Source: Macrostomum lignano (taxonomy: Eukaryota). Taken from it: 64,000 bases of DNA. A program made the position numbers and the translations under genes. This document shows, piece by piece, positions 24,964 to 58,648 of this stretch. How positions within the stretch are numbered: position 1 is the stretch's first letter; every line of letters starts with the position of its first letter. The stretch spans positions 1 through 64,000 of the forward strand of contig NIVC01001184.1 in the NCBI GenBank assembly GCA_002269645.1, given 5' to 3'. The notes under the pieces are model-generated. The model was not told the DNA's origin. It was given only the letters and a program-made list of their open reading frames with translations, and made no database searches.

Positions 24964-29743
<4,780 letters not shown>

Positions 29744-30833
29744 GACTGAAAAAAATTCAGCTCTTAGATTGGGCCTGTCTACCTGTTTGAGTCCTATAAC
29801 CCTGAGCGGGACATTCTCGGGATTATCAGTTTGATTTAATTAGTTATCAACTTTAGAAATTAAAAAACTTGGCGACACGGCGTGTGCGAGCGGGCTTGGA
29901 ATCTGAATAACCTAAAGTACAGTAAGTACTTTTAATGTGCACATCGCCTGGTGTGAATGGCGTGCGGTGCGACATGTACTTTTAATTATGTACATTGTGA
30001 AATGTGTGTGCAAAAAATAAATTATGCTATAAAATAATCTTAATTAGTCAATGAACAAATAGGTATATCGGTCTATCAATTCCTATTTATGGTATAACAA
30101 TAGCAGAGTCACTGAGACCAATTAATTAAATTTTATTCCCTAATCTTCCTGCTGTCTGATAAACTGTATTCCCACAGGGTGTATAGATAATTCCAAGTCA
30201 AATTTACTATTGGTAGTTACGGCTATACTTTCCTTACTGTAATTAACTATGCTGCCTTGTGCCTTCGGTTAGTTTTGCTTTGCTTTGCTTCTATCTATAT
30301 AGGGAATTATTTTACCTGCCAGTGCTACTTTAATTAGCAATTAAACATTTATGAGCACCCGGGTTTTATAAAGCTGAACAATTATAGATGGTTATATCAT
30401 ACGTGCTAGGCGATGTTTTAACTTGCGCACCTATTCTATTGTTATCTCGTATCGTATTTGTCTTATCTTTTGTTCTTAATTAGTTTACACATGGCTGTGG
30501 CACCTGCCTAGGTCGATAATTTAAAATTAATTATCGTCCTACGGCCCCCACTGGTTCTCTATAAATATTAAGTATACATTTGCGTTATTTCGTTTTTGCT
30601 CTAATATATTTAGTGGTTTTGCTCTGCTCTGTTGCTAACTGTTTAGTCTTGTGCGTTTTTTGCCCAATAAATTTATACAATTTATAAAATATCCCCTTCT
30701 CGCTGAGTTGTCCAGTGCTTCATCCAGTTAATAGTTGGTTGGTTTATAGCCCGCAATGATCTTTTCACACCTTGATGCATACGAGTCTCAGCATCCACAC
30801 AAATATACATAAGATTCCAAACCCCCCTGTCCC

Positions 30834-32744: not shown

Positions 32745-35170
32745 TACATATCCCCAATATGCTTCCCTAATTTATCCCCAATATGCTACCCTGATTTATC
32801 CCCAATATGCTTCCCTAATCTATCCCCAATATGCTACCCTGATTTATCCCCAATATGCTTCCCTAATCTATCCCCAATATGCTACCCTGATTTATCCCCA
32901 ATATGCTTCCCTAATTTATCCCCAATATGCTTCCCTAATTTATCCCCAATATGCTTCCCTAATCTATCCCCAATATGCTACCCTGATTTATCCCCAATAT
33001 GCTTCCCTAATCTATCCCCAATATGCTACCCTGATTTATCCCCAGTATGCTTCCCTAATTTATCCCCAATATGCTTCCCTAATTTATCCCCAAAATGCTT
33101 TCCTAATTTATCCCCAATATGCTTCCCTAATTTATCCCAATATGCTTCCCTAATTTATCCCCAATATGCTACCCTGATTTATCCCCAATATGCTTCCCTA
33201 ATTTGTCCCCAATATGCTACCCTAATTTATCCCCAAAATGCTTTCCTAATTTATCCCCAATATGCTTCACTAATTTATCCCCAATATGCTTCCCTAATTT
33301 ATCCCCAATATGCTACCCTAATTTATCCCTAATATGCTTCCCTAATCTATCCCCAATATGCTTCCCTAATTTATCCCCAATATGCTTCCCTAATTTATCT
33401 CTAATATGCTTCCCTAATCTATCCCCAATATGCTACCCTAATTTATCCCCAAAATGCTTTCCTAATTTATCCCCAATATGCATAACTAATTTATCCCCAA
33501 TATGCTTCCCTAATTTATTCCTTATATGCTTCACTAATAATTATCCCCCATATGCTTCCCTAATTTATCCCCAATGTGCTCACTTTCCTTATTTATCCCC
33601 AATATGCTACCCTAATTTATCCCTAATATGCTTCCCTAATTTATCCCCCATATGCTTCCCTAATTTATCCCCAATATGCTTACTTTCCTAATTTATCCCC
33701 AATATGCTTCCCTAATTTATCCCCAACATGCTTCCCTAATTTATCCCCAATATGCTTCCCTAATTTATCCCCAATATGCATAACTAATTTATCCCCAATA
33801 TGTTCACTAATTTATCCCCAAATATGCTTCCCTAATTTATCCCCAAATGCTTCACTAATTTATCCCGAATATACTTCCCTAATTTATCCCCAATATGCAT
33901 AACTATTTTATCCCCAATATGCATAACTAATTTATCCCCAATATGCTTCCCTAATTTATTCTTTATATGCTTCACTAATTTATCCCCAACATGCTTTACT
34001 AGTTTATCCCCAAATACGCTTCACTAATTTATCCCCAATATGCTTCCCTAATTTATCCCCAATATGCTTCCCTAATCTATCCCCAATATGCTACCCTGAT
34101 TTATCCCCAATATGCTTCCCTAATCTATCCCCAATATGCTACCCTGATTTATCCCCAGTATGCTTCCCTAATTTATCCCCAATATGCTTCCCTAATTTAT
34201 CCCCAATATGCTTCCCTAATTTATCCCCAATATGCTTCCCTAATTTATCCCAATATGCTTCCCTAATTTATCCCCAATATGCTACCCTGATTTATCCCCA
34301 ATATGCTTCCCTAATTTGTCCCCAATATGCTACCCTAATTTATCCCCAAAATGCTTTCCTAATTTATCCCCAATATGCTTCACTAATTTATCCCCAATAT
34401 GCTTCCCTAATTTATCCCCAATATGCTACCCTAATTTATCCCTAATATGCTTCCCTAATCTATCCCCAATATGCTTCCCTAATTTATCCCCAATATGCTT
34501 CCCTAATTTATCCCTAATATGCTTCCCTAATCTATCCCCAATATGCTACCCTAATTTATCCCCAAAATGCTTTCCTAATTTATCCCCAATATGCATAACT
34601 AATTTATCCCCAATATGCTTCCCTAATTTATTCCTTATATGCTTCACTAATAATTATCCCCCATATGCTTCCCTAATTTATCCCCAATGTGCTCACTTTC
34701 CTTATTTATCCCCAATATGCTACCCTAATTTATCCCTAATATGCTTCCCTAATTTATCCCCCATATGCTTCCCTAATTTATCCCCAATATGCTTACTTTC
34801 CTAATTTATCCCCAATATGCTTCCCTAATTTATCCCCAACATGCTTCCCTAATTTATCCCCAATATGCTTCCCTAATTTATCCCCAATATGCATAACTAA
34901 TTTATCCCCAATATGTTCACTAATTTATCCCCAAATATGCTTCCCTAATTTATCCCCAAATGCTTCACTAATTTATCCCGAATATACTTCCCTAATTTAT
35001 CCCCAATATGCATAACTAATTTATCCCCAATATGCATAACTAATTTATCCCCAATATGCATAACTAATTTATCCCCAATATGCTTCCCTAATTTATTCTT
35101 TATATGCTTCACTAATTTATCCCCAACATGCTTTACTAGTTTATCCCCAAATACGCTTCACTAATTTATG
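32745..35170. repeat. 24-bp satellite (CCCTAATTTATCCCCAATATGCTT) with a 1113-bp higher-order duplication
   Basis: About 100 units. The identical 162-aa pseudo-ORFs at 33203 and 34316 mark the duplication period. Confidence 0.96.
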
Positions 35171-35963
35171 ATCCGTCTGTGTGCAGCGCTGCTTGAAAAG
35201 AAACTGGGTTTATCCAGATTTTAAAAAATTTAAATCAGAGAATAGGAAACGGATCGAGTGGAGAATAATCTGGTCTGAAGTCTCTCTCAAGAAATAGTTT
35301 TTATTCGGATTGACCCCCCCCCCCTTGTGACAGTTCAAGGGGCCTGCTCAAAGGTGATACTCGTAATTACTGGCCAAGAGCTGCTAAGGTGTGAGAAAGC
35401 TAACTACAAGAATTGACTAGGGCGGGGGGTTATAGGAGACGTTGCACAGCTTTGAACAGGAAATTAGCTTTTCTTTCACCTTTAGGCGTTGAACATTTTC
35501 GCTCGGATAGGCATAAGGGCAAGAGCAGACCGCATAGGTGTCCCCAGAGCTCATGGGAGCCTCTCTCGCCTCACTTCGTCAACAGGGATTATCTGATGCT
35601 GGCCAGAGCAGCTCCTGTACGTTTGGGTGTACCCCCCTCCCATGTGCTCTGCCTTTGGGAAATTCATCGGTACCTTGGTCATCGTATTCGTTTTAGTCTT
35701 CTTGTGTGTATTTTTGACTCGTCTACAAGCTAGCATGCATGGCTAGGCAGTCAGAGTGAGTGCGTTCTCAGCTTACAAAAAATAAGGCAGTTAAAATTGA
35801 GAGCACCAGTAGCAATTACCTGTTTTTTTTACCACAGGCAAGGTTAAACAAAGCAAAGAAAGAAATTTATCTAACTAGAATGCTTTTGTTTATAAAGTAG
35901 CTCGAATGACAGTAAAATTAGCGAGATAGGCAGGAGGCGGCTGCACGAACGAGCCTGAAGAGT

Positions 35964-38900
35964 GGCGACGAAACGGCCACCCCCCACGGAGGGGTCTGCT
36001 TTCTTGTTAAGGAAGGTGTGGATTTCGCTGAGTACCGTCTGCCGCATATAGACGTGACCCGCACTGCTGCTGAAGGCTCGGCCATCTCGCTCCACGATAA
36101 ACGATTACCTCGACCAATTCACATCATCAACCTCTACCTCCCGCCGGTTCGAACCGCCGACGGGCGCCCTGACGGCTTTGACCCGGACTGGCTCCCGACC
36201 GGCCCGGACGTGTTCATCCTCGGAGACATAAACGCACACCACGGCATGTGGGAGGATAACTGCGACTCCGAAGACCAGCGAGGCTCCGCTTTCGAAGACT
36301 GGGCCACCACCAATGATTACGTGGCCCTCAACGACGGCGGCCCGACCAGAGTCAACGCCAGAGGCTCTACCAGCAGCCCCGACGTCTCCTTCGTCCCTGC
36401 CAGCTGGCAGGACAAGCTAGATTGGAACACCGGCAAACATATCGGATCTGACCACCTGCCCATCATTATTGACGTCATAAACCTAAACCCGCTCCCTGTG
36501 AAAAACGACAGGAAAAAGAGGCACACTCGCTTGGCTTATCACAAAGCAGACTGGGACAAATTCCGCCTTATCATCAGCGAGCGCCTTAAAAACTGGACCG
36601 CTAGACCACCAAAGACTGCCACTGGAGCTGCCAGCAAGCTCACCGACGCGATCACGGAGGCGGCCCGCAAAGCGATACCGCAGGGATCCCGCCGCGCCCC
36701 AATTGCTTGGTGGTGCCCAGAAGCTGAAGCAGCGTGCGCAGCCGACGCCAGGCTCTTGAAGACCTCCGAGCCAACCCCAACGACGACCAACTCGCCCAGG
36801 CGTTCCAGGAGGCGGCAGCGCACGCCACCGCCACCATCCGCAACGCCAAGGAAGCCCTGTGGCGCGACTTCATCAGCGACAACTCCAGCGAGCTCAAGTC
36901 GACTGACCTGTGGCGCATCATCCGCGTCCTCGACGGCCGCACCGCGGCCGCCCGCCCATCAGGGGCGATCCAAAACCCACAAGGCCGCTTCGCCACCTCC
37001 AACCGCCAGAAAGCCGATCTTTTCTGTCAAGAGTACGCCAACGTCGCCAAAATCCCGAAAGACAAATCGGCCGACAAAGACATCCGAAACGAATCCAGAA
37101 GAGCTGTGCGGGACATTTGCAGCTGTCAAAACCACCGGACGGGCCTGTGCGCCGACTTCCCGATGGAAGCTCTGACCAGAGCCATCAGAGGTATCCCCAG
37201 CAGATCGGCACCGGGCATCGACGGCGTTTCGAACCTAATGCTCAAAAATCTGCCAACCCAAGGCCTGGAGCTGATGCTGCTTGCCATCAACATCTCCTGG
37301 CGTACCGCTGAAGTCCCGGCTGCGTGGCGTCTGGGCGACATTCGACCGATCCCCAAACCCGGAAAAGATCACAGCATCACGGCGAGTTTCCGCCCTATCT
37401 GCCTTCTCTCTTGTACTGCTAAAATCGCCGAGCGGCTCGTTAACGAACGCCTCGCCTTTCATCTGGAAGAGAATAAACTGCTAAATGCAGCCCAAGCTGG
37501 ATTCCGCCGGAACCGCTCCACTGAGGAGCAGATTACGGCGGTCACCCAATACATCTTCGACGGCTTCCAAGCTCAGAAACCAGCGAAGCGGACCGCCCTA
37601 CTCTTAGCTGACTTCTCCAGAGCGTACGAGCGCGTGTGGCGTAAAGCCCAAATCGCCAAGCTAAACAGAAAAGGGACGCCCACGTGTATGAACCGGTGGA
37701 TTAAAAACTTCATCAACGACCGCCGTGCCCTCGTCACCTGGGACGGGGTCCGCAGCCGCGTCCGAATCTTCACCGAGGGCCTACCGCAAGGATCCGTTCT
37801 CGCCCCGACGCTCTGGGACGTGTACATCGACGACCTGCTCGACGACGCCCCCGAAGACGTCCTGGCGGTCGGTTACGCCGACGACACCACCTTCGGCGCC
37901 CAAGGCCACAACCTCAAAGAGTGCGAGTCGAGACTGCAGAGAGCGGCCGATTGGCTTGTTACCTGGTCCCAAACCTGGAAGGTGGACCTCAACAAGTCCA
38001 AGTCGGTCGTTTCCTTCTTCTCCCTCGATCCCCGTGAGGTAAATGGCAAAGCGAGACCGAATATCAGGCTCGGCGACGTCCAGGCCCCGTTCGAACCTCA
38101 CCCAAGACTCCTGGGCGTGCACCTCGACTCCCAGCTCACGTTCCGGCACCATGCGTCGGTACAAAAACAAAACCTCCAAAAGAGGACCAACGCTCTCCGC
38201 TGCCTAGCCGGGCGTGACTGGGGCCAGGACCCTGGGCTCCTGTCGCAACTCTACAGAACCTACGCTGAGTCGGCTGCTCTTCACGGCGCGGCAGCCTGGT
38301 TAAACTTCGCGTCGGACGCCTGCAGACAACTGGTGGAATCTGCCCACAACGAGGCTGCCCGTGTCATCTCAGGATGCTGCAAATCTACGCCAACAGCCGC
38401 GCTCCTTATCGAAGCCGGACTCCAACCCCTGGCTCACAGTGCGGCGGCCGCGGCAGCGACGCTCCTGGACAAAACGCTCCGCCAACGCCAAGCCACCCCG
38501 CTCCGCAACATCGCCGACAGAGAAGTCACTCCTCGCATCCGCGCTCACGGCGGAAACGGCAACTTCCGCAGATGTTGGCGCAGGTGTGCCAGAGAGCTGA
38601 CCCACAGAGCCGGACTGGCTGAGCTCCAAATCGAAACCGACAACGAGCTGGTGCCTCCGTGGTCATCCTCGACCAGCTTTCACATCCAAGACGCCCTCAT
38701 AGTTAAGTGCTCACGCGACGACCCACCGCATGTTCGCAGGGCCGCGGCGCTGGAGACCCTAGCGTCGCTCCCCCCGCTGACCTGGAACTCTGGACGGACG
38801 GGTCGGCAGCAGGGGGTACCACCAACGGCGGAGCAGGAGCTGTCCTCTACACCCGCGGTTCGTCGACGCGCTTTCTGAGAGCTCCGGCGGGGAGCCTGAC

Positions 38901-44582: not shown

Positions 44583-45622
44583 TAGACAACGCTGTAGGGG
44601 ATTTGCCCATAGAGAAATTCGATAAGGTAAAATCCGCTCTAAACAAATCCGATCTTCTAAGCAAATCGAGTGTAAGGATTCTTTTACTTTAGTTGTTCAT
44701 GAGCAAGAAGTTCTTGAACTACTTCACCAATGATTAACGAGAGCGTGTATGACCGGTTTTTATAAAGACCTGCTTCAATAGTGCAGCCCGAAAGTCAGTC
44801 GGTATACACGAGTCTGCTCAGCCGGCAAGCACACGCACGCACTCAACACACACTGCATGTAGCGGTGGCCTCGTCAGTTTTCCTGTCTGCGAGCTCGAGC
44901 AAACTTCCTGCTTTCTCGAGCCAGTGTATAAACTCTACACAGACGCGCCAATACTTGAAAAATTATGTTTCTCAACTCTGCTCGCCGGGGAACAGAAGTT
45001 AACTTCAAAGAGATGCTGGTTGATTCCATGCTGGTGGTTAGCTTTATACGGAGTTTCTCGACAAACTGTAGCATTTTGCAAGCTACACAATTTTACCCTT
45101 GATTTTGAACAAGGAGAACTTCGAAACTGACAAACTCCTCTTTAATATTGACACTCTATGGTCGGGCACTCAAAATCTACAATCAATATTGACAGATCGA
45201 GCTTCATTTTTGACAACTCCGAATCAATATTGAACAGTTTACAATCGATTTTGACTAAGACATTTTTTGAAATGGATTTTGAAAATTTTTACCAAGTTTT
45301 CTCTCTTGAGGGGGGTACTTGCTATTTGGGAGAGGGGGTACTGGCTGCATGTATCTACGAGTACATGTGGGAATCTTTCTATCCAGGGAAAAATGAAAAA
45401 TGAAGCAGACTTTTTGGGTACACAAACCATAGAGTGTCAGTTTTGAAGCAACTCTGTCAAAATAGAATCGGACTTTGCAGCCCAACCAGTCAGGCTATTT
45501 TAGTCTGTGTGTCTAAAGGATGGAGAAAAATAAATTTTATCAATACTTGTAGATCCAAAAAGCAAAGTCAGAATAAGCTGATTTTGCACAGCTCACTTCA
45601 GCCCCGTTCAGGCTTTCATTGG

Positions 45623-45801
45623 AGTAGTAGGAAAGTGGTACCCTCTACCGCCATCGCACGGGATTGGCCGGGGCACCCGGCCAATGAGGGGAGAGGGCGC
45701 CCCGAAGACGCCCACCCCGACGCCAAACCCACCCCGACCCCCAAACCCACCCCGACCCCAAACCCACCACCGCCACGCACCCAATCCCGACCCCAAACCC
45801 A
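45623..45801 (+). repeat. Maverick left TIR, followed by subterminal 39-bp repeats to ~46110
   Basis: Reverse complement of the right end; C-rich sub-repeats CCCCGACCCCAAACCCA. Confidence 0.95.
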
Positions 45802-46673
45802 CGCACCCAATCCCGACCCCAAACCAGGCCCCCTCCTGTCCTACACCCCTCCTGTCCTGCACCCCGTGAATCCCATACCAAGACCCCCTCCTGTCCTGCA
45901 CCCCGTGCATCCCATACCAAGACCCCCTCCTGTCCTGCACCCCGTGCATCCCATACCAAGACCCCCTCCTGTCCTGCACCCCATGCATCCCATACCAAGA
46001 CCCCCTCCTGTCCTACACCCCTCCTGTCCTGCACCCCGTGCATCCCATACCAAGACCCCCTCCTGTCCTGCACCCCATGCATCCCATACCAAGGCCCCCT
46101 CCTATCCTACGCCTTGCCCCATTCCATGTAGCAAGGTCTTTCTATCCTGTACCCTAACCAAAACCAATTCCCCCCTCCTAATTCCTAAACCCAAGTCTTA
46201 TTACCTGTCTCACTTACCGCCTTTAAAGCTAGCCAAGGCAAAACCCTCATTCCATGCTTTGGTTGTACTGTATCTTGCTGTGGCGGGTACAGCGTGAGGT
46301 CGTTAGACCTAGAACGCTACTTCTTGGCGGCCAGAGGGCCGCAAGAAGGTCCCGCCACCTCCTGTTACGTTGATGGCTGAGACTTTGTTAAGGCCCGAGT
46401 TCCTGCGAAAGGGCTGCTGTGTGGGGGTTGGATTTGGGGTTCGGATTAGTTATTGCTATGGAACAGGAGCTGGTTTCTAAATGGCTGAGTGGTCCCCGGA
46501 AGGGCTCCTGATTTGCCGAGAGTTCCTGCGAGAGGGCTGTTGTGTGGGGTTGGATTCGGGGTTCGGATTGGTTATTGCTATGGAGCGGGAGCTGGTGTTA
46601 CTTACCAACTCCAGTCATATATAATCTCGCGCACAGCCGGAAGGAAAGCTCACAGTTTTTGACAGTGAACAAA

Positions 46674-47369
46674 ATGGAGTTCAAGACATTATCGAACAGA
46701 TTTCGAATCGGCGTCAGGTCGCACTCGAAGTGCATCAGCTTCAGAAAGTGGTACAAATTTGCCGAAGAGTATCGACCAGGTCTGCCTGGCATGGAGCTCA
46801 CCGTCCACCAGTTTTGCCACTTGGGCAGCCTGAAGGAACGACTGAAAGAGTTTGCAAGAAAGTGTATCGACGAGCAATGCCTTCTGGGCGGCAACAGGCA
46901 AGTGGTTTTGCAAAATGGCGTAATCACACTCTGGCGCCTTCCAACTGTACTCGGACCGCCGGTGCACCTAAGGCATGCCTTACCGCTTCCTACTACACTT
47001 TGGCGCGAAGTCTGGGCTCAAAAGCAATGGGTCCTAGACAAAATTGACAAGCGAGAGCCTCCGGTCGAGCCGCCGATCGGCGATCCATGGTGGATGGGAT
47101 ACCACCCTACGGAATCTGAAGAGTGTTCAGCATGGGCAGCAAGGCTTACACTCGACCAACTGATGCAAGTACCTGACAGGCAGTCGGCAGATTGGGACGA
47201 CCACTGGGGGGCCTTCCAAGCAGTTCAGGCTGAATTTAGAAAGAGATTTACATTCGAAACTCTGGAAGAGCCACCAACAGCTGAGAAGAACCAACAGCCT
47301 TCATTCCACCAGCCACCAATGAAGCGACGCGCAATGCATGAAGCGACAACTGGTCATTTCGTCAATTAA
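46674..47369 (+). CDS. Maverick accessory protein with N-terminal PC4/Sub1-like (ssDNA-binding coactivator) domain
   Basis: ATG in AAAATGG context, TATATAA at 46618-46624, AATAAA at 47603. ISFRKWY..EEYRPGLPGMELTVHQFCHL aligns by eye to the PC4 core IDIREYW..EMKPGRKGISLNPEQWSQL. The C-terminal ~160 aa are unassigned. Confidence 0.6.
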   Translation: MEFKTLSNRFRIGVRSHSKCISFRKWYKFAEEYRPGLPGMELTVHQFCHLGSLKERLKEFARKCIDEQCLLGGNRQVVLQNGVITLWRLPTVLGPPVHLRHALPLPTTLWREVWAQKQWVLDKIDKREPPVEPPIGDPWWMGYHPTESEECSAWAARLTLDQLMQVPDRQSADWDDHWGAFQAVQAEFRKRFTFETLEEPPTAEKNQQPSFHQPPMKRRAMHEATTGHFVN

Positions 47370-47788
47370 CTTTTTTTTAATATAGTTTTGAACCATAGTA
47401 CTGATCATGCACTGTTGTATATATTGCTTTGTCAATACTGGCCATAATATTGCCCCATCATGCTTTGATTCCTGGCGATAATACTGTTTTGTAAATACAC
47501 GCGACGGGCCTTAATACTGCCCTTCCATTCTTCATAAACTTTTTTTGTGCTAATACGAGCTTTTAACATGTAATTTTATGCTTTGCAATCCATGGACCTG
47601 CCAATAAAATAAACAAAAAAAACGTTTCATTTTCGTAAGCATTGTTGCACAAACACAGTCGCATTCGCGTTTATTTTTTCTTATATTTTGTACACAAAAA
47701 ATACAGAAGTAAAGTTACAGCAAAAATATTATTATTAATACTCGGTGCATAGGCAGATCTCACTACTACTGTTATGCCGTAGAGGAGC

Positions 47789-48388
47789 TCAGTCAGAGTC
47801 CAGCAAAGTAGGTTCGGATGCTTGATCTGGTAGCAAAATGCGGGAGAGGGCATCAGCTGCAGTCTGAGCCTCAACCACGCTGCGAGCACCAGCTATTATA
47901 CAGCGATATGAATGAAACAAAATCAACTTTACAGAGGCAGTAAACTCGAGCACAAGTCCGTTAAACATTTCCGGCTCATAGGTGCCCCGATGCGGCCATT
48001 TAGACTTGAGTTCCCCCAACCGGAGTGGATGCGGACCCGCGGGAAAGGCCGTCACAGAGGTAATAGTCTTGATGCGAATCTGGGGCAGACTGGTCAATCG
48101 CAAGAAGTCCGCACACAGCTTCACAATCTTCTCCGTCTCTGCGAGAGCTTCCTCCAGGCTTTTGGCTCCACAGACAGACACTTGTCCGGTCGGATACACC
48201 AGCGCGGTTACTCGATGCTGCCCGCTCTTCATCACCACTGCCAGTGTTCGAGGATGAACCAGGCGATGGCGGATTGTGTGATACTGAGGCAGATGAAGAG
48301 TCAGGAAATTCGCTAGTTGTGGCAGACCCACCCGGGTCGCCAGGTCGGCTCCTGTCACGATGTTTGTCACGCGAATTGTTGCGACCAT
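47789..48388 (-). CDS. Maverick-encoded divergent TATA-box-binding protein (TBP)-like protein, 199 aa
   Basis: Two-repeat TBP core. Repeat 1: VTNIVTGADL..LANF..TALVYPTGQVSVCGAKSLEEA. Repeat 2: YEPEMFNGLV..LILFHSYRCIIAGARSVVEA. Upstream TATAAAA at 48435-48441; minus-strand AATAAA at 47670-47675. Confidence 0.85.
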   Translation of the reverse strand: MVATIRVTNIVTGADLATRVGLPQLANFLTLHLPQYHTIRHRLVHPRTLAVVMKSGQHRVTALVYPTGQVSVCGAKSLEEALAETEKIVKLCADFLRLTSLPQIRIKTITSVTAFPAGPHPLRLGELKSKWPHRGTYEPEMFNGLVLEFTASVKLILFHSYRCIIAGARSVVEAQTAADALSRILLPDQASEPTLLDSD

Positions 48389-48390
48389 CT

Positions 48391-48880
48391 TTAGACAATC
48401 GAGAGAAACGCCAGTGCCTGCTGCAGATCGCTACTTTTATAGACCCGTAGCCGCGAGGCCGCAGCCAATCAGCGTACAGCGCCACTTTGGCCAGGGCGCA
48501 GGGCAGCACGTACTTTGAGGCACTCGGAAAGGCTAGGTGTGCGAGGTCGTAAACAGGCTGCAGCAGCAGACGCGACAGGAACTGGCACTTGACATCCCCC
48601 TTGCTAAATATCGGGCCTTGCAAGTGAGAGATATCGCTCCAGAGACAAGAGTAGGGTCGGAACCCACTCCTGTCCCAGTCTAGACGTGCCGCTTATTGGT
48701 GAGCCAGTAGCAGGTTCGTCGCTGTCCTCTATCAAAGAGCTCAAAGCTGTGCGGCGGCTGGTAGCAATAGTAATGAGCCGTCGTTTGACCGCATGCAAAC
48801 TCAACCCATGCAATTTCCTTAATCACAAAGTCCTCTGTTTTGTAGAGGTGCGGAAATCCTTCAAAATCAATGACAATCAT
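48391..48880 (-). CDS. DEDD/DnaQ-like (Maelstrom-like) 3'-5' exonuclease-fold protein, frameshifted in this sequence
   Basis: MIVIDFEGF..FVIKEIAW..YQPPHSF..WLTNKRH, a -1 slip at ~48685, then GLDWD..PY..IFSKGDVKCQFL..VYDL..CALAK. The 3' end is inferred: a second slip near 48445 gives a stop at 48391; otherwise the ORF runs to 48000. Confidence 0.6.
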
Positions 48881-49473
48881 CTTGGCCACTTGATCCACTT
48901 GCCGTATCCTTTCTGAGACTGAGTCTTCTTATAGCCTTGCAGTCGAGGTTTTTTAGGACTGGACTTTTCTTCCCGAGGCTTTTCCAGCAATTTTGTAGTG
49001 TTCAGACCAACTGCAGACAGAGGCACGTGGTTTTCTTGAAGACACGTAACAAACTCATTAATCCCATTCGGTGGCTGAAGGTACTTAGAGTACGTATCTT
49101 TAACTATGAAATGCAGCAGGTCCACGATATTTGAGTTGTACAACGGTTTACCATTGACAGAAACTTCATACGTATCATCTATGCTAATCGACTTGCACTT
49201 TACGGTTATGAAGCTAATCAATGCCTGCAGACGATGATGCCATTTCTGATTCACCGTCAGATATAAAACCTCCTTCCACTGCGGTTCTTTGTGAATTACT
49301 GGAGGCTGTTCTTGGGTCGCACTTGCCTGCAGCTGCTGCACGCAACGCTCGTCCCTAATCTTGCGCAACTGTTTTTCCGCCTCTAGCTCGGGTTCACAGA
49401 CTGTCTCCATGCCCCTCTGATTCACAAGTGCCTCATACTGCAACCGGGGTACCAGTATCATTTCCTTGTACAT
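48877..49473 (-). CDS. Conserved Maverick protein of unknown function (PZ/PW class; exact label uncertain)
   Basis: MILVP start and VNGKPLYNSNIVDLL..PPNGINEF..LQENHVP motif resemble the conserved Maverick ORF found next to the ATPase. Confidence 0.55.
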   Translation of the reverse strand: MYKEMILVPRLQYEALVNQRGMETVCEPELEAEKQLRKIRDERCVQQLQASATQEQPPVIHKEPQWKEVLYLTVNQKWHHRLQALISFITVKCKSISIDDTYEVSVNGKPLYNSNIVDLLHFIVKDTYSKYLQPPNGINEFVTCLQENHVPLSAVGLNTTKLLEKPREEKSSPKKPRLQGYKKTQSQKGYGKWIKWPR

Positions 49474-49765
49474 GTCTTTTTATATAGGTGAGAATCAGAG
49501 GAAGACAACGAAGGATATGCGGGTGTGAGAGATTACGCCGAGCCTCTTTCACACTTTTGCTTTGTGCAACAAGCCGGAGAGTATTTCGATATCGCCTGAG
49601 TCTCCGCTTCAAGCTATCTTCACAGCCAACTTTTCCTGCTAGTAAGTTGATAATACACTCGACCAAAAAGCAAATGGTGCTTTTATTTGCATAGGTAAGT
49701 ATGCAGCGACGCAAGGATATAGTGCCCTCACAAAAGACAGTTATTAGTGCAATGTGTTTATCCAT
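49433..49765 (-). CDS. Conserved small basic Maverick protein (PM/PW class; exact label uncertain)
   Basis: RRCILTYANKSTICFLVECIINLLAGKV..KRRLRRYRNTLR resembles the Maverick small ORF pattern IL..A..L.EC..N.L.G.V..LR. Confidence 0.55.
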   Translation of the reverse strand: MDKHIALITVFCEGTISLRRCILTYANKSTICFLVECIINLLAGKVGCEDSLKRRLRRYRNTLRLVAQSKSVKEARRNLSHPHILRCLPLILTYIKRHVQGNDTGTPVAV

Positions 49766-49795
49766 GTTTAACTCAGTGCAGAGACTGAGCCATTC

Positions 49796-50454
49796 TTATA
49801 GATAAACTCGCTGCGGGGCCTCATCGGGGAGAAAATTGGCTCTCAGGCGCAGTTCATGGCGTGAAGCAGGGTGAAAATCAAGCAGCAGATAGCGCTGATC
49901 TCCATCTCGCACCAATCGATCCATCAGTTCTACTAGCAGAGTGCGCCGTTTGGGAAAGCATTGCTGACTTAAAGCTTGGACCGCAGAGGCGTCTCTGGGG
50001 TTGTTGAACAACACCATGTAGGTGCAATTTATGCTAATTGTGCGCCACTCTCTGCCTTTGAAAAATAGATTTTGCGTGATGAGAATGACAAAGCAGGGCT
50101 TGTGGTGGGCCTCACGGGTGAACAGATGTCGTAGCTCTCGACTTGCAGCTGCTTCATCCAGTAAATCGTCAATCACAATCAGGTCATGGGGCTGCAGATC
50201 CAAATTCGATAATCCTTCACATACTTGCACTCCTAGCCGCCGCAGAGTCGCGTGGAGTTCCGGCTGCGGGCATCCGTGATACCAAATCATCCGCTTGGGA
50301 GGTTGGTCGAACAAAGCAGTCGTTGGGACAGCAACCGCAAACAGAATGTTGATTTTCCCGCTCGAGAAGGGCCCGAAACCATCATGCAGCCTCCCATCCG
50401 CAGTCTGGAATCAAACACCTTGCAACTGATTTTTGAGTCTGAGTATGATTGCAT
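49796..50454 (-). CDS. A32/FtsK-HerA-like DNA packaging ATPase (one -1 slip at ~50314)
   Basis: Walker A GPSRAGKS, Walker B LIVIDD, HHKPCFVILITQNLF, RTISINCTYMVLFNNPRD; ~219 aa when rejoined. Confidence 0.92.
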
Positions 50455-50884
50455 CGTTTTGAGCCACAGCTGCCGGGTGCAAAACCTTGATGAACAAGGC
50501 ATTATATGACATTCTCTTATGCAGTCGATGGATCAAGTAAAAAATGCAATACCAGCCGCAAAGAGTTGACGAACTGGGCTGAACAGGGACCGTATTCCAT
50601 TGTAGCACCATCCGCGTCGGTTTAGTTTTCTTTAACCAGCTCTTCATATTTTTACTCAAGCCTCCCAAAGAGTTGAAAATTTCACAATGCACTTTACTGG
50701 TTACTACTCCAGCAATCCAGTGACCGCACTCATCATTCCATGGCTCATACAAAATGAAGCAGCAGGGTCGGCAGGTTGAATCGAAAAATGGTGTCACTGT
50801 TCCAACTGTAAAATTTCCGCAATAGGCATCCCGCACAGATGTGGGGCAGCGAGAAATGAACGCTTCCAACTCTTCGGAATTCAT
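50411..50884 (-). CDS. Adenain-like cysteine maturation protease
   Basis: GHW (catalytic His), FNSLG, VQPSSSTLCGWYC (oxyanion Gln and catalytic Cys). Confidence 0.9.
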   Translation of the reverse strand: MNSEELEAFISRCPTSVRDAYCGNFTVGTVTPFFDSTCRPCCFILYEPWNDECGHWIAGVVTSKVHCEIFNSLGGLSKNMKSWLKKTKPTRMVLQWNTVPVQPSSSTLCGWYCIFYLIHRLHKRMSYNALFIKVLHPAAVAQNDAIILRLKNQLQGV

Positions 50885-52150
50885 GCTCTGCGATAATCCA
50901 GCAGCACATCCCTCTCTTTAGTGATTTCCATGCATGAATCATACACGCACAAGCAGATGAGTGTGACTGGCTGTGCGAGAGCGTTGGAAAAGCGAATATC
51001 CAGTCGTAGTTGACCCTGCCTATGACCAAACCAGCTGCCTACTTCATCGCCACTTGGACTAAGGTCAAACGCAAGCAGATAGGCACTATTTCGAAATTCA
51101 TCAAAGCTTATGCAATATTTTCCACTGAGACTGCGGGCAAACTGCAAAAATTCGGATGAGGCTGCTGCTGTGGTTCTATGGGCTGCCCAGTAATTGGCTC
51201 TCCATTGACAAACAGGCTTAAACTATTCAACCAAATGCTTGGAACCAAAACGGGTTGTGGTGCAGAGATCCATTGAAAGCAGTCTGGCTGACCATTCCAA
51301 GGAGCACAAATTTTGGCAGCTGACCATGCGTGATTGAATCGAGACTCTTGTTTCTTGTCCCAACAGAAAATGTGAATGTCTGAAGCTCTCTTCTATCAAA
51401 GTGGTAGAGAGCATTACGCTGTGAGAGCCCCTGTTCATGTGCGAGAGCCACTGTTGGGTTTACTCGGAGACGCCTCAAAAGCAGAATAGCATTGTCGACT
51501 TCAACACGGTATTGAACTCCATTATTGGGTACCATCAACGAAAAAGCGCTGCAGTGCCGGGTCAATTTGACCTGCAGGCTGATTTGGTTTAGCAGATACT
51601 GCCGGATTGAGAAAATGTCTGAAAACAACGGGCCGGCATATTGCACAACAGCAGAAGCCTCATGCAATCTCGCACGATTTGTGAATCCATGATTTTGCTC
51701 CCCAATGGTGTCACTCTCTCCAGCGGTGTCTGGATAATAACCTGCGGCCGCCAGTTCTTGAAGCTGGTTGGCATTGCTGCTGGTCAGCACTTGAAGCATT
51801 GCTCGATATGGGTAGAGCTGGTCCCCACCACTCACAACCCGCTGGTTGAGTTTTACAGTGACATCACGAAACAGGCTGGCAAGCGGGAGATTCGATAGTC
51901 CGACATGGGCATCATCTTCATTAGTCAGCTCTGCATTGTTTATCACACGAGTTATCCGGCAAGTGACTTGCAGCACTGTGGCGTGCAGATCGGTGTAGTC
52001 CTCAGAGGAGGCGTGGCAGTCGAATTCAATCGGTGCATCAGGAGTCGTGAGACTGCCGATGGGATGAAAGTCCGTGAAGTGAGACCTATCCACTCCAATT
52101 TCATGCGTCATTGGCTCAAACAGATTGAGCCGTGGATTTGTCCGATACAT
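50881..52150 (-). CDS. Major capsid protein (double jelly-roll, PY), two -1 slips at ~51229 and ~51174
   Basis: LNLFEP..FHPIGSL..PIEF..YTDLHATVLQVTCRI; LFRDVTVKLNQ; YPYRAML; AFNGSLHHNPFWF; C-terminal AFDLSP..GQLRLDIRFSNAL..EITKERDVLLD; ~423 aa when rejoined. Confidence 0.9.
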
Positions 52151-52419
52151 TATGAGAGTGAATCGAGCACTCGGTTGACTGTTTTTAACGGTATCTTGCG
52201 CTTTTTTGTGGGCACTGGCTTGCTCTTCTTTGGTTTGATTTTTGGCGTCTTCTTATGTTTTCTTTTTTTCTGCGATGGAGGTGGTATGCGGGAAAGGAGA
52301 ACTGCATTTTCATGAGTCTCAGGGGGCAGTCGAGATAGCAGCGATGTGGGATATCCGTGCCCATGAGGAAGTTTGAAGCAACTGCCTCGATAAAACTCGG
52401 TCACTTGTCGAATGTCCAT
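52150..52419 (-). CDS. Small Lys-rich putative core/DNA-condensing protein
   Basis: 89 aa with a highly basic C-terminus (QKKRKHKKTPKIKPKKSKPVPTKKRK) and an N-terminal FYRG..HGHG motif; lies between the capsid genes, overlapping both. Confidence 0.5.
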   Translation of the reverse strand: MDIRQVTEFYRGSCFKLPHGHGYPTSLLSRLPPETHENAVLLSRIPPPSQKKRKHKKTPKIKPKKSKPVPTKKRKIPLKTVNRVLDSLS

Positions 52420-53183
52420 GACTCACGCAGCTCAAAAGTCAAGACTGTGGGTACAAAGAGTAATCGGATAGATTCGATACAGTTGATCGGTCGTAGCCGT
52501 ATTTGCATGTGTGTTAAGCGGTGGTTTGCTGCTATTGGGAAGAATAGCTTATTCTTATAGATGAGTTCCGACCGGTGATCCTGCAAAAGACCACCAATAT
52601 TCAAAGTCTGCAGTGCTGGAGTAAACTGATTTCCAATACAGCGCGGGCTAATCTGATCGCACTCAACAAGCAGCAAATCCGTATTCCAGGCCGGGTTCAT
52701 GCCAGGTCGTTCAAAGCATCCTGCCTGCTCGCTATAGGTTGTCTGCGCAGCACCAAAGATTTTCCCCATCTGGCTGTTTTCTGGAAACATAAATCTCTCA
52801 CAGATCCCAGCCATTTGATAGTATACATAATGGCTAACTGAATCAAGGGTAAATTTAATTAGATGCACATTTATAGGTGTTTCGCCAATTCCAGACTCAT
52901 CAAAATCTTTTACAATCAGTAAAGCATTTACTGCATCAATCAGCTCATTCAAGTCATTGTAGCGCCCAGCTGGAATTTCAGCACATTGCATTGAACCCTC
53001 AAGCTGATAATATAGCGACAATGGATGAGGGATCGTGTAGATGCAGTTGATAAAACTGATTCCAAGCAGACCCAACTCATAGTCCAAAGCAGAATCCAGC
53101 AGCACAGGATGCAGCAGCTCAGCAGTAAAGTTGGCCGGGTCATCATCGGGGCCGGACATTACCTGAAATCTTTGCCTTTTCAT
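52401..53183 (-). CDS. Minor capsid protein (penton, single jelly-roll with insertion, PX)
   Basis: PANFTAELLHPVLLD..YELGLLGISFINCIYTI N-terminus and LLLVECDQI..FFPI..HMQIRL..LTFEL C-terminus; position typical of the Maverick penton. Confidence 0.8.
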   Translation of the reverse strand: MKRQRFQVMSGPDDDPANFTAELLHPVLLDSALDYELGLLGISFINCIYTIPHPLSLYYQLEGSMQCAEIPAGRYNDLNELIDAVNALLIVKDFDESGIGETPINVHLIKFTLDSVSHYVYYQMAGICERFMFPENSQMGKIFGAAQTTYSEQAGCFERPGMNPAWNTDLLLVECDQISPRCIGNQFTPALQTLNIGGLLQDHRSELIYKNKLFFPIAANHRLTHMQIRLRPINCIESIRLLFVPTVLTFELRESWTFDK

Positions 53184-54387
53184 ATTTTTCTTAAGTCTTT
53201 TTCGTCAATCCAACTGGGTTTTTCTGAATCGCGCCACTGAACCAAATACCGAATCTTTCCACTCTTCAGCTTCTTAATGTTGAGAACCTTGTCGATGATC
53301 CACAGCTTCTTGTTTCCTGTCACTTGCTGCATTTCCGGCTCGTAAAACTTGCCTTCCAACTCTTCACCTCGGGCATCGATCAGAGTGTACATGTATGGAT
53401 AATGCTTGGGGTGGAGGGACTTGACTTCAAATACTTCCTCACTCCATCCCCTTGTGTATCCCTTGGTGAATGGGTTGGCCAGATTGCGAAGAGAGATTCG
53501 CACCATCATTCCTGCCTTGAACTTTGGTCTGGAGACCTTTTCACGAGTCTCAGGAAGCTTCCCATCGTAAAGCCGGTGCCAAATTTCCATCTCGTTTGAC
53601 TTGTCGACATCAACTGGTCGGCTTTGAATACTCCGATGAATACTCTGGTTGTATGCCTTTGCTAAGGGTTGAAGCACATCGGTCCAGGTTAATGTTGACT
53701 TGTGACGGAAGTACCGCCACATTCGGGATTTCAGTGTGCGGTTCCATCTCTCAATGACTGCGCATTTCTGGTCACTACTTGATGTGAATGCATGAATTTT
53801 GTGGTTTACGCAGAGGCTCGGAACTGGGTGTTACAAAACTCTTTTCCACGGTCGGTCCGAACTGCTCGTGGGCATCGAGGGTGAGCTCGATTTAGGATCG
53901 CTTCGAATCCGGCTGCAACCTCCTCGGCTGTCTTGCGGCGCACCGGCTGAGCCCAGGCAAACTTGCTGAGCACATCAATGCAGCATAAAATATATCGTAC
54001 GCCGCCATTGTACTTGGCAAACGGTAGCATTTCAACCAGGTCCAGTTCCCACTGGTCATCCATGCCCCGCACCACAATCGGTGCTCGACGAAAGTTTTTG
54101 CGTTTATCTCTATGCAGTGTGTAGACATCTTGGTCTTGGAGCCACGTTTTTACCTTTAATTGTAAAAACTGGAAATTGCTAGCAACTAAAAACCTAAGCT
54201 GGAATTTTCTAAAAAATCATTGGTTTAGAAGTATATCGTATATACATACCTGCCCTACACTAAACTTGGGTCCGTGCTGTTTGTGCAACTCTCGTTTTAA
54301 TGCCTGATAGCCGCCATAGCTGCCCGGTCTACTGCAGTCAAAATAAATACCTGGCAGAAGGTTTGAAATTGCCTTTTTCTTTTTCAT
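53180..54387 (-). CDS. Retroviral-like c-integrase (DDE) with C-terminal chromodomain; 2 exons, one -1 slip at ~53815
   Basis: Exon 1 54387-54250 (MKKKK..IYFDCSRPGSYGG..VGQ); intron 54249-54154; exon 2 VKTWLQDQDVYTLH..QWELDLVEM..TDRGKEF..AVIERWNRTLK; chromodomain WIIDKVL..RYLVQW..PSWIDEKDL; ~370 aa when rejoined. Confidence 0.92.
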
Positions 54388-54499
54388 TTTACCAAATTTC
54401 TAGTACCTATCATTTTCTTATGCCAAACACCTGCTTGAAAAAAAAAAACTACCCACCCCCACCAGTTTCTGCGGATTTAGCGTTTCTAGCCTCTGTTGT

Positions 54500-54815
54500 G
54501 CGCGAAAAAGCATGCATGTTTGCACAAAAATACATACATTTCAATGGGAATTTTTACCCGAATGTGTGCACAAAAAACCTCGACACTTTGCATACTTTTT
54601 AACACTGTGCACGAAAACTTGCATACTTGTGCACAAAATACATGTATTTCAATAGGGATTTGTACCCGAACCTGTGCATGAAAATTGACGCATTTTGTCG
54701 AAAAATTCACGCCGTATTGCATACTTTTAATCACTGGACGAAAACTTGCATACTTGTGGATAAAATACATACATTTCAATGGGGATTTTACCCCAGAGCT
54801 GTGCACAAAAAATGA
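54500..54815. repeat. Imperfect ~110-125-bp triplicated AT-rich repeat between the pPolB remnant and the integrase
   Basis: AAAATACATRYATTTCAATRGG..TTTTACCC..TGTGCA recurs at ~54527, ~54636 and ~54762. Confidence 0.7.
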
Positions 54816-54979
54816 CTAATTATAGCAAAAATATTTTTGTGAAAGAGCATTTTTCTCTATTTCTGCGTATTAGATATCATAGAGTAAAGCTTGTATTTAT
54901 TATTATTCAAAATATAGTATGTTCGTATTAAATTTACATGCATATAGTTGTTTTAAATCAGATATTTACAAAGAAAAAA

Positions 54980-55770
54980 AAATTTGTGGGAAAAAGAGCT
55001 TGCTAGTGTCCAGACAGATCGCACTGGCCGATATACACTAGCCTGTCGAGCACAACATTCGTCTTGAGAATGTGCACTAGAGCTAAATCCCCGTTGAAAA
55101 TCATCTGATCGCGGAACGTCGGCTGGCCACAGGCTTCCCTGCTGAATAAACCAGCACGTAGTCCACTTGCTTGCGAACATACTCGATGGTCTACAGGGAG
55201 TTGTTTAGCAGCTTGTTGCAGTCTTTCTTGAACTCATTCTTGGCCTTTTGCACGACGCTCTATGCGGTAGATAATAACTTGCGGTTGACACGTCAACACA
55301 CCGAGTGGTCCTGATTACCCAGCCACTGCCATTGCGTAGTTACTTCTCTATCCGGTTGAGGATAGTCTGCATGTCGTCAGAGAAGTAGTACTCCTCCTCA
55401 CTCTGGAGAAGAGAGTGGACCTTGGCAGCAAACCAGGCAGTGTTCTCGGCGGCGCAGCTACCATTAATGATGCGCTGCATCAGGACCCCGAGGCGCAGCT
55501 GAACTTTGATGGCGGTTCCTGGCTCACGTTGATGCTGGGTGATCAAGTCAATGAAAGCTTGACGAGTGTTTTCCAAAACATTCATCGGGTCGCCGCATGC
55601 ACTGGCCCGGTAAAGTTGGGACCTGCCATTAAACGCCTCCTTGATCAGTTGAAAATGAATCGCTGGGGAGTCATCTGACTCAAAAGTGCTGGTATCGCAG
55701 GACATACCGCATAGTGCTCCTCAATGCCCCCGATTACTGATGACTCGCAAAAGTCGCAAGTTATTTGCAT
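54980..55770 (-). pseudogene. Protein-primed family B DNA polymerase (pPolB) remnant with a large internal deletion
   Basis: N-terminal CDFC..H..C finger and KVQLRLGVLM..WFAAK..IEK-stop-LRNGSGWVI (the Maverick pPolB GSGW motif). This is joined within ~60 bp to AKNEFKKDCNKLLNNSL-stop-TIEYVRKQV (motif B, KLxNNS) and PTFRDQMIF..VLDRLVYIG..LDTSKL. In-frame stops and frameshifts; no exonuclease or YxDTD core. Confidence 0.85.
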
Positions 55771-56448
55771 TTTCGTTGTATTTTTAATTTAATCTAAAAT
55801 AAATAAAAAATCTATGGGGCCGAGGTGCTTTATTTATAAAGGGTACTGGAGCCCTTCTCCCGCAGGGTCCAAACCAAATCGTTCATCAGGGACCTCTCGA
55901 CCAATAGAATCCATTCTCCACATTTTACTCGGAAATCACTTCAAATGCTTGCTCGACCAATAGAATCCCTTCCCCTCTCTACTCGGAAATTCCAAGCAAT
56001 CAGACCCTCTACCCGTTAAGATCACATTGAAACTCTGTCTTGCGTATCACCACATGCGGTAGAGGATACTCAACTATGGACACTCATTCACATCTCAAAA
56101 CTCACCCTTGAACACTCACTTAACTCACCCTTGGACACTCACCCAGACACTCAGCTGCCCAACCCCTCATCTGGCCTGCTCGACCGGCTTGCCCGACCGG
56201 CTTGCCCGACCGGCTTGCCCGACCCCAACCTGGGCTTGCCCGACCCCCTTCTCCGGCCTCCGGTATGGGATGGTGTGCTGGACAGGAAGGGGCCTTGGTA
56301 TGGGATGGGGTGCAGGACAGGAGGGGGCCCGGTTTGGGGTCGGAGGTAGGTGCGGCGGTGGTGGGTTTGGGGTCGGGTGGGCGTCTTTGGGGGCCCGGTT
56401 TGGGGTCGGGGTGGGTGCGTGGCGGTGGTGGGTTTGGCCGGGGTCGGG

Positions 56449-56628
56449 GTGGGTTTGGGGGTCGGGATTGGGTGCGTGGCGGTGGTGGGTTTGGGTCGGG
56501 GTGGGTTTGGGGGTCGGGGTGGGTTTGGCGTCGGGGTGGGCGTCTTCGGGGCGCCCTCTCCCCTCATTGGCCGGGTGCCCCGGCCAATCCCGTGCGATGG
56601 CGGTAGAGGGTACCACTTTCCTACTACT
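56449..56628 (-). repeat. Maverick right TIR, with related sub-repeats continuing to ~56250
   Basis: Reverse complement of the left end. Confidence 0.95.
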
Positions 56629-56835
56629 CATTGGATTACTTTGTTACCGAATTCTCCCAGGAGAAGTTGACTAAACGTGCATTGTCAAAATTGAACCAGA
56701 GTTTGTCAAAATTGAAGCTTGATCTGTCAATATTGATTGTAGATTTTGAGTGCCCGACCATGGAGTGTCAATATTGAAGAGGAGTTTGTCAGTTTCGAAG
56801 TTCTCCTTGTTCAAAATCGAGAGTAAAATGGTGTA

Positions 56836-58648
56836 GTAGAGACTACGAGCAAGCAATTTAATTCAAGTTAGCAAAAACACATGCATTTTGAGCCTCACTG
56901 CTAGTTGTCTCACGATTTCGCGCGGGCAAGACGGCCTAAGGAATCGTCAGTGTGTTGCCCGCAGATTTTGTCTATGGCATAAGCGTAAACGTTTGTAACG
57001 CAAGATTTTTTTGTATTTTTTGCGATTAAACTTGAAAAGTACAAAGTGAAACTTATGAACATGGCATTAAAAGTACAACCGATATGTCACGTATACATAG
57101 CGTGTGCAATGGCTGCATGTGACCAGAGGAGTTCCTTTAATACTCCACGTTAGTCTATAGTCCACTAAATGAAGAAACTAAGTCAGACGCCATCCTTTTC
57201 CAGTACAGCGGTAGGCTTGAGGTCGTTTGGGTCGCATGATTGCCTCACGGCTGGGATAGCGTTCGGTCTTTGATTGATGTTGCTAGCCTCTGAAGTCTCA
57301 GTGACGACCATACGCTTTGATGAGGTGGCCTCAGTCTCCGACACAGTCTGTCCCCACGGCAGGATTTCCTTTCAAACTTACATACCAGAGGCGCAAATAG
57401 CTGTCGACATAACGCAGTGGCATGCGCTCAATGTCCTCAGGCAGTTTCTTCTCGCGGAGGAACTTCTTAAGTCGTTCAATGTGGTTCCGAGTAGTAGCCA
57501 ATGTCGAAGGCGACTTTGAGGATGCCTCGGTGTCCTTAATGTTTTGAAGTTCTTTCGCATCCAAGTCTCGTAGCGAACACTCCGGATCAATAGCGGAATT
57601 CAGGAATTCTTCGACCTCCTCGTGGTCCAGGACCGGCAGCCCAGTGAATTGATCTACCGTTGATTCTACATGCATGAACAGTCGAGATATAAAATGCAGC
57701 TCAGAATTAGCCAGGCCACTAATATCGCCTGTTGCTATCTTACTGAAATTGATCATGTTGCCGTCAGAATAAGCTATCAGTGCAGCTAATCTCAGCTCTA
57801 GTCCGATGCCTCCACGTCTCTCTTCACTGCAGCTGTATGAACAGGCTTTAGGGGCTTTGGACATAGACGAATTCTCAGGGCAACGGACACACAACGACAT
57901 TCCGTGCCCGCTGTTTTGGTCTATGGCCAATCGTGAAACAACATAGCAGCCCTCGGATTCGCTCATTCCTGCCCTCAAATCCATAGTCAGAACAATCAGT
58001 TGTCTATGGTAAAAAGTGTGTCAAACCGGCAGGCAATTTAATCCTAGGAGCACTTATTTAAGCACGATCTTGCTCGGACTTTCCATTTATTTCATGCATG
58101 CCTCCAACCAAACCAACCAGGAAGCTCCATATGAAAAAGTTACGACGTATAGAACAAAATTCAGCAAAAAAGTTCACTTAACGAAACCTGTGTATAAAGA
58201 AACACACGGCAGAAAAGTTTTTACATGTACGTTTAGACTTCAGTAGGTTACATAATCACCTCCCCAGCGCTGCAGCCTGTGCGAATTCTTGTCTGCGTGC
58301 TAAGTTGGCAATGCTTCTGTTGTTAGCGTCGATTATCAATCTATGCTTTTTGTCGTTAATCTTAGCATATTGCACAGATGGCGCTCCGGCATCTTCAGCA
58401 GCGATTCCGTGGATGTCTTAAAAATGGTGCTGGCTTTGGTCACTTTCGTCTGACATGTTAAAAAAACTGAGATTGGAACGGCATAGACAGCGCTGTTTAT
58501 GGATTTCAGTGCTTAAATGATTGCTCCAAGGATTAAATTGCCTGCCGGTTTGACACAATATTTACCATGGCATGGACAACTAGCATTGAGGCTCAAAATG
58601 CATGTTTTTTGGCTATCTTTGATTAAATTGCTTGCTCGTAGTCTCTAC
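56836..58648. mobile_element. Degenerate inverted-repeat-bounded element (~1.8 kb) with a nested inner IR pair
   Basis: ~74-bp arms at 56836-56909 and 58575-58648 (GTAGAGACTACGAGCAAGCAATTTAAT..GCATTTTGAGCCTCA..CTAGTTGTC); second IR pair at 58004-58065 and 58509-58570. Confidence 0.65.
57331..57984 (-). pseudogene. Possible Crypton-type tyrosine recombinase (DUF3504-associated) N-terminal remnant
   Basis: ELQNIKD..KSPSTLATTRNHIERLKKFLREK..DIERMPLRYVDSYLRLWYVSLK resembles the Crypton/ZMYM/KCTD1 core-binding region. The catalytic domain is absent, and TAT|GTAAGT may be a splice donor. Confidence 0.4.

Follow-up and report, generated by a model that had tools for sequence, protein, structure and literature searches.

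A Maverick/Polinton element in a contig of Macrostomum lignano carries an integrase gene interrupted by a 96-nt AT-rich segment, and this segment is probably a real U2-type spliceosomal intron, acquired recently at a proto-splice site, CAG|GTA, on the branch leading to this element's lineage. The reading is drawn from the sequence of a stretch of 64,000 nucleotides (contig NIVC01001184.1, positions 1 to 64,000), referred to here as the window. The candidate intron is of the GT-AG type and in phase 0, and lies on the minus strand at 54154..54249, where it splits the integrase between two conserved helical motifs. Coding exon 1 (54250..54387, minus) comprises 46 codons from an in-frame ATG at 54387, and coding exon 2 (53180..54153, minus) contains the rve core (Pfam, 2.9e-10) and a frameshift near 53815.

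Read on the minus strand from 54249 to 54154, the segment measures exactly 96 nt, a multiple of three, begins with GTATGT and ends with TTTTTACAATTAAAG. Its GC content of 0.27 compares with 0.49 in the 101 nt upstream and 0.53 in the 300 nt downstream, and is below that of all 6043 overlapping 96-nt windows taken from the rest of the element's coding DNA (minimum 0.30). Translation into the segment meets a TGA at codon 11, the single stop in the exon frame as against three in each other frame. The AT-richness, the GTATGT start and the TGA at the 11th codon had been reported in a preliminary description of this DNA, with which the minus-strand sequence agrees; the frameshift near 53815, a weak 3' splice signal and a 5-nt repeat at the junctions had been overlooked there. 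A 16-nt repeat inside the segment (81% identity) hints that the segment may be older than the integration of this copy.

Among the matches listed, the closest relatives of the integrase are P0001 and P0002, which are 80% and 73% identical over exon 2 and are each a continuous protein. Each shows 32 gap positions across the region in tblastn, and in the printed alignment of P0001 these form one single 32-residue gap at the junction, the alignment being otherwise gap-free once the 96 nt are removed. Between the N-terminal aromatic pair and the TLH motif, P0001 and P0002 both have 43 residues, as does the window integrase once the 96 nt are taken out; the figure would be 75 without splicing, and 48 or 58 via two inner acceptors discussed below. 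The earlier claim that removal of the segment restores the family motif in phase 0 is borne out by this shared spacing of 43 residues. A wider comparison covered 276 relatives in overlapping sets (13, 1, the best 150 of 21,778 and the best 120 of 503). The spacing lies between 35 and 50 in 265 of the 266 relatives that could be anchored; the sole one outside this range, P0108 at 60, has a different N-terminus, and the 10 unanchored rows have ordinary, short or missing N-termini. A comparable insert occurs in none of the 266 anchored relatives, which are the best matches collected. It should be noted that the sets are mostly ORF-called and favour continuous frames, so that the relatives show what the protein looks like and not that introns are absent elsewhere. 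The BLAST alignment starts late in 25 of the 276 relatives; some of them have a normal N-terminus in which the loop is shorter, others a different N-terminus or a start that lies late. That these might be intron carriers was considered and rejected, as none of the 25 has intron-like letters before the second motif.

The element itself is an integrated Maverick. It spans 45623..56628 (11,006 bp), with the ends AGTAGTAG…CTACTACT, the end motif (AGT)2//(ACT)2 and a 6-bp target-site duplication, CCAATG when read on the minus strand, at 56629..56634 on the polB side and at 45617..45622 on the other. The terminal inverted repeats (TIRs) occupy 56262..56628 (minus) and 45623..45996 (plus) and have 0 mismatches in their outer 133 nt; a one-base difference in a C run follows, and then ~38 more matching bases. 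The inner TIR parts (45623-46110 versus 56262-56628) contain unequal numbers of GC-rich 17-39-nt subrepeats. TIRs, (AGT)2//(ACT)2 ends and a 6-bp target duplication are given as Maverick hallmarks in the vertebrate study PMC8097293, and together with the rve match they agree with the assignment of the gene as a Maverick integrase in the preliminary description. Outside the target duplication, a 152-nt inverted pair (92%) at 45083-45233 and 56685-56836 flanks the element, which seems to have inserted into a small (~740 bp) TIR element; there is, in addition, an inverted match between 56836-56909 and 58575-58648.

The minus-strand order is putative polB remnants, integrase, minor- and major-capsid-position ORFs, putative protease, ATPase, small ORFs and a TBP-like ORF. 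The remnants at 55020..55780 (minus), putatively protein-primed PolB to judge by short motifs, contain stops, lack most of the gene and gave no Pfam or PHROG match. The open ORF at 52401..53185 (minus) is a putative minor capsid gene, named by its position and by a motif; it has no Pfam or PHROG match, and the capsid ORFs have no Pfam, PHROG or PDB sequence match. The probable major capsid gene (50881..52150, minus), frameshifted near 51230, resembles a 440-aa ORF of the contig L001 (E 1e-35 and 3e-9). L001 (1-7899) is an intact relative with ATPase, integrase, capsid-position and protease ORFs; like L002 and L003 it is a Maverick-like contig filed in a bacterial metagenome-assembled genome, and all three are probably eukaryotic or viral contigs that were misbinned. 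The putative cysteine protease ORF (50411..50884, minus) matches Pfam C48 at E 0.0097, below the cut-off, and an L001 ORF at E 2e-7 that is itself a weak Peptidase_C5 match. The packaging ATPase (49796..50410, minus), frameshifted near 50320, matches an L001 ORF in tblastn (E 1e-23); the L001 ORF matches Pox_A32 above the cut-off, and the window ATPase has no direct Pfam match. Last in the gene run is an open TBP-like ORF (47789..48388, minus) with two repeats (Pfam TBP, 4.7e-18), preceded by a frameshifted ORF (48683-48880, then 48000-48692, minus) with a nuclease-like start and a weak PIN_11 match (E 0.055). TBP-like genes appear among adintovirus-like elements in a figure legend of PMC8502044, and a search for Mavericks together with TBP returned no relevant literature; a possible role of the TBP-like ORF is to direct host polymerase II to promoters of the element. 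On the plus strand the element has a single long ORF (46512-47369; 285 codons stop to stop), with no Pfam or PHROG match.

The copy is filed as a damaged Maverick because integrase, major capsid and ATPase are frameshifted and polB is mostly missing. It is not intact in the sense of PMC8097293, which concerns core ORFs that are all open and intronless. Four element genes are broken by frameshifts (near 53815, 51230, 50320 and 48690, minus) in the absence of in-frame stops, and the single difference between the outer TIRs is the one base in a C run; this indel-heavy pattern could reflect long-read error rather than decay.

The 5' splice site (54242..54252, minus) reads CAG|GTATGTAT and matches the consensus complementary to U1 at 10 of 11 positions. 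Sites this good number three on both strands of the window against 0.61 expected; a looser nine-letter donor consensus is not enriched in the window (41 found, 47.6 expected). In a null model, AT-rich DNA from the window was inserted at random into coding DNA of the element, accompanied by duplications of 0–8 nt (400,000 trials). GT…AG ends arose in 1,408–9,788 of the 400,000 insertions (0.35–2.4%), and GT…AG ends together with a donor of at least 10/11 in 6–26, a rate to be discounted for the unknown number of places first scanned.

These figures bear on the strongest alternative, in itself unlikely, namely that the segment is a private, never-spliced piece of AT-rich filler, inserted at AGGTA with a 5-nt duplication in a decaying copy, and that its good donor is luck. 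A 5-nt direct repeat, AG|GTA, does lie at the 5' junction (54247..54251, minus) and at the 3' junction (54151..54155, minus), and a plain insertion can mimic intron ends since the repeat supplies both the GT and the AG. The reading is consistent with the several other lesions of the copy, with the weak 3' end and its excess of AGs, with the up to 2.4% of simulated insertions that show GT…AG alone, and with the fact that no relative among the best matches collected shares the insert. Further, PMC8097293 notes that in degraded Mavericks there are insertions which Genewise reports as introns. Against it stands the simultaneous GT…AG and 10/11 donor in so few of the trials, as does the absence of any further internal AT-rich insert from the remaining coding DNA: a low-GC scan detected no other intron or AT-rich insert there, polB being mostly missing. 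The identical outer TIRs and the perfect target duplication also indicate that the element inserted recently, which would leave little time for a later private insertion.

The same junction repeat is consistent with a recent intron gain. At the junction, [QKE]-V, which permits AG|GT, is found in 77 of the 276 relatives (best matches collected). Intron gain via insertion at AGGT with duplication, and via break repair, is described in PMC3443670, where repeats of at least 5 bp are also reported to flank 26% of conserved Drosophila introns; the repeat thus fits recent gain and does not prove it, because such repeats flank old introns as well. Several sources of the inserted DNA were tried and rejected. 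Tandem duplication of exon DNA gave 30 matches in 91 positions against 26.5 in shuffles (p 0.20); an introner or MITE would be expected to have an end-to-end inverted repeat, and only 7–8-nt internal inverted pairs are present, although the 5-nt junction repeat agrees with the target-site duplication of such an element without being diagnostic; the fold z of 0.18 gives no notable sign of a structured RNA. A group I or group II self-splicing intron was likewise rejected: over 53900–55100 no Rfam family falls in the segment at E ≤ 1, the single match at that threshold being a chance microRNA match outside it. A second copy of the integrase or of the segment was not found within the 64-kb window, where the best chance match to the segment is 12 nt.

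The 3' splice signal is weak. At the 3' end (54154..54175, minus) a T-rich stretch leads to an AAG acceptor, with 65% pyrimidine in the last 20 nt. The segment contains no YTRAY and one YTNAY, which starts at nt 84 of 96, too near the end. Nt 37–94 contain six AGs where 2.2 would be expected (p 0.006, in a test chosen post hoc). The branch point and pyrimidine tract are degenerate signals in many animals. Nearby host genes in the window, a kinesin-light-chain-like TPR gene and a WD40 gene, also have GT-AG intron candidates, with boundaries placed by eye; their GC content is 0.41–0.49 against 0.53–0.64 in the exons, and the three clearest acceptor candidates end in CAG.

Two CAGs inside the segment are in frame and sit after T-rich sequence: one at 54169..54171 (minus), which as acceptor would give an 81-nt intron and keep 5 additional codons in the mRNA, and one at 54199..54201 (minus), with which the intron would be 51 nt and the additional codons 15. 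Splicing could mainly use the CAG at 54169, or that at 54199, so that the integrase would be 5 or 15 residues longer, or several isoforms could be made side by side. This has in its favour that CAG is closer than AAG to the host acceptor candidates and that a spacing of 48 falls within the family range of 35–50. It is nonetheless quite improbable, as a spacing of 43 is set by P0001 and P0002, the Ser-x-x-Gln that precedes the junction in these two aligns only with the 96-nt cut, and no more than 5 of the 266 relatives have spacings of 47–50.

A tree of the C-terminal part of the integrase (18 rows chosen from the 276) groups the window with P0001 and P0002 at 100/100, within a six-member subfamily at 100/99. 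As the window integrase nests with these two continuous proteins, the most economical assumption is that the intron was gained on the branch of the window integrase alone, provided that P0001 and P0002 are genomic. Were they spliced transcripts, the intron could be older and subfamily-wide; the contigs behind them (1,613 nt for P0001, 6,563 nt for P0002) may be transcripts, and ORF-called protein sets select continuous frames. Such an older intron is highly improbable, given that subfamily contigs reach 14,411 nt (P0004) and 4,961 nt (P0015) and look more DNA-like, and that no collected relative has intron-like letters before the second motif. Further, a genome-contig scan of 47 candidate stretches yielded three relatives at the DNA level (38–43% identical), all continuous over the site. 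Three protein searches for a sister copy retrieved no relative more than 80% identical among the matches listed: the exon-2 query gave 13 matches from 158 candidates at longer lengths (best 80%) and 1 match from 8 candidates at near lengths (62%), and the subfamily profile retrieved 503 of 4717, with no new close relative in the best 120.

Finally, that the segment is an in-frame coding insertion of 32 codons, whose single TGA arose after the copy's death, would suit a length divisible by three and the lone stop in the exon frame where each of the other two frames has three, and is scarcely credible with a GC content of 0.27 outside the element's coding range, no spacing above 50 in any anchored relative with the same N-terminus, and the donor left unexplained.

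The preliminary description had also taken a second acceptor at ~54351 as a hint of a further upstream intron. The sequence CTTCTGCCAG does exist there, but homology begins upstream of this AG, at 54369 for P0001 and 54372 for P0002 (tblastn), and the N-terminus resulting from the in-frame ATG at 54387 resembles that of P0002. As homology passes through 54351 and an ATG is available, the coding sequence can be read without a further upstream intron. A better acceptor candidate is a T-run followed by CAAGCAG at 54431..54448 (minus), 44 nt upstream of the integrase ATG, which is possibly the acceptor of an untranslated-leader intron or a trans-splice acceptor. Donor-like sites with 8/11 matches lie at 54537, 54557, 54772 and 54937, and a 9-codon upstream ORF overlaps the integrase ATG with its end. 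Between the polB remnants and the integrase, 54497-54816 holds ~3 copies of a ~127-nt AT-rich repeat, which may be a promoter or an inserted host repeat and has no match elsewhere in the window.

The favoured reading, a recently gained spliceosomal intron, would have the following history. An ancestral CAG|GTA, encoding Gln-Val, would have formed a proto-splice site, into which break repair or a small mobile piece would have brought ~91 nt of AT-rich DNA, duplicating 5 nt and so placing GT and AG at the segment's ends. The integrated element would have been transcribed by host polymerase II and the 96 nt taken out by the host spliceosome, since Mavericks are, we infer, nuclear and read by that polymerase. 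Selection may have maintained or improved the near-perfect donor, and the parent family would have produced its integrase from spliced mRNA; in an mRNA that retained the intron, translation would stop after 56 codons and degradation would probably follow. The young copy seen here would carry the intron inherited from its parent. Because of its further frameshift this copy would probably yield no whole integrase, unless the break is an assembly error.

Most likely, such an intron is tolerated and constitutively removed and is not a switch. The preliminary description had proposed that splicing might regulate integrase between the integration and virion phases. An intron that acts as a gate is distinctly unlikely: a strong donor combined with a weak, multi-AG acceptor would make splicing inefficient or tissue-dependent, so that complete integrase would be confined to certain cells, for example the germ line, with no effect on the downstream capsid genes. 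The third intron of the Drosophila P element is the obvious comparison. Its retention cuts the transposing enzyme short, and in the present element, too, the stop codon in a retained intron would truncate the enzyme. Tissue-specific regulation is proven for the P element, whereas here the intron is a candidate known from its sequence.

Introns are not expected in this position. The preliminary description had stated that Maverick ORFs are normally annotated as intronless, which holds for the published core genes of intact vertebrate and nematode elements (PMC8097293, 10.1101/2022.07.12.499685). The vertebrate study describes 134 intact Mavericks of 12.7–24.6 kb with intronless core ORFs and relays the original statement that Polintons are intronless. 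The present element resembles these in its TIRs, end motif, 6-bp target duplication and its integrase, ATPase, putative protease and capsid-position genes; it differs from the intact vertebrate elements in its size of 11.0 kb, its damage, the location of nearly all genes on one strand, the TBP-like ORF and the split integrase. Nematode Mavericks also contain spliceosomal introns, between TIR and integrase, but there they lie in captured host cargo and the core genes are intronless (10.1101/2022.07.12.499685), whereas here the candidate lies inside the integrase. In dinoflagellates, Maverick-Polinton-like proviruses have received intron-forming insertions, the introners, mostly after integration (PMC11957031). 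Introners are, however, multi-copy transposons, while the present segment has no TIR, a fold z of 0.18 and no second copy in the window, and its host is an animal.

Related systems outside the Mavericks offer further parallels. Ginger1 elements have a DDE enzyme gene, related to Gypsy integrase, that is interrupted by GT-AG introns (between 1 and 4 in some families), although Ginger elements are small cut-and-paste transposons that lack capsid and polymerase genes (PMC2836005). Punuivirus is an integrated dsDNA virus in which host-type spliceosomal introns are found in 61 of 506 genes and are overrepresented in the latency program (10.64898/2026.10.09.758095); it is a latent giant virus of a green alga whose introns have RNA support, as opposed to one intron proposed here from sequence. 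Group I introns are described in protist Polinton-like viruses (PMC12220804). No spliceosomal intron in a Polinton gene appears in passages of PMC10748475, PMC8502044, PMC11296320, 10.1101/2024.03.25.586562 or 10.64898/2026.07.28.741278, and none in an animal Maverick integrase was found in the mainly open-access literature searched.

The surrounding window contains several features of its own. An NWD1-like NACHT/WD40 gene (2515-10591, plus) has a last exon open for 1,268 codons, and the kinesin-light-chain-like TPR gene (24900-29750, plus) has a polyglutamine-rich last exon and minisatellite-filled introns. A single-exon ORF at 12102-13154 (plus) has a signal-peptide-like start and a weak PAN domain match; 35922-38878 (plus) encodes the endonuclease and reverse transcriptase of a non-LTR retrotransposon in two overlapping frames. 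Long strand-skewed tandem arrays occupy 19861-21404 (a 5-mer, 306 copies) and 32749-35169 (a 24-mer, 100 copies).

The value of the finding is limited by two circumstances: introns have already been reported from Maverick-like elements, as introners or in cargo genes, and from related transposases, and the evidence comes from one damaged copy, read as sequence. The expression of Maverick core genes is little known. If the favoured reading of a recently gained spliceosomal intron is true, an animal Maverick has been transcribed and processed by the host's nuclear machinery for long enough to gain and keep an intron, and the junction would add a dated example of how introns arise at proto-splice sites. 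As the preliminary description had anticipated, ORF-based annotation would be affected, for an ORF-length filter of the kind applied to pPolB in PMC10748475 would drop split genes; surveys that depend on long ORFs would then misfile some live Maverick families as dead. Should the intron act as a gate, the junction would be a direct RNA read-out of a Maverick's commitment to integration, and ORF-based surveys would under-count such families.
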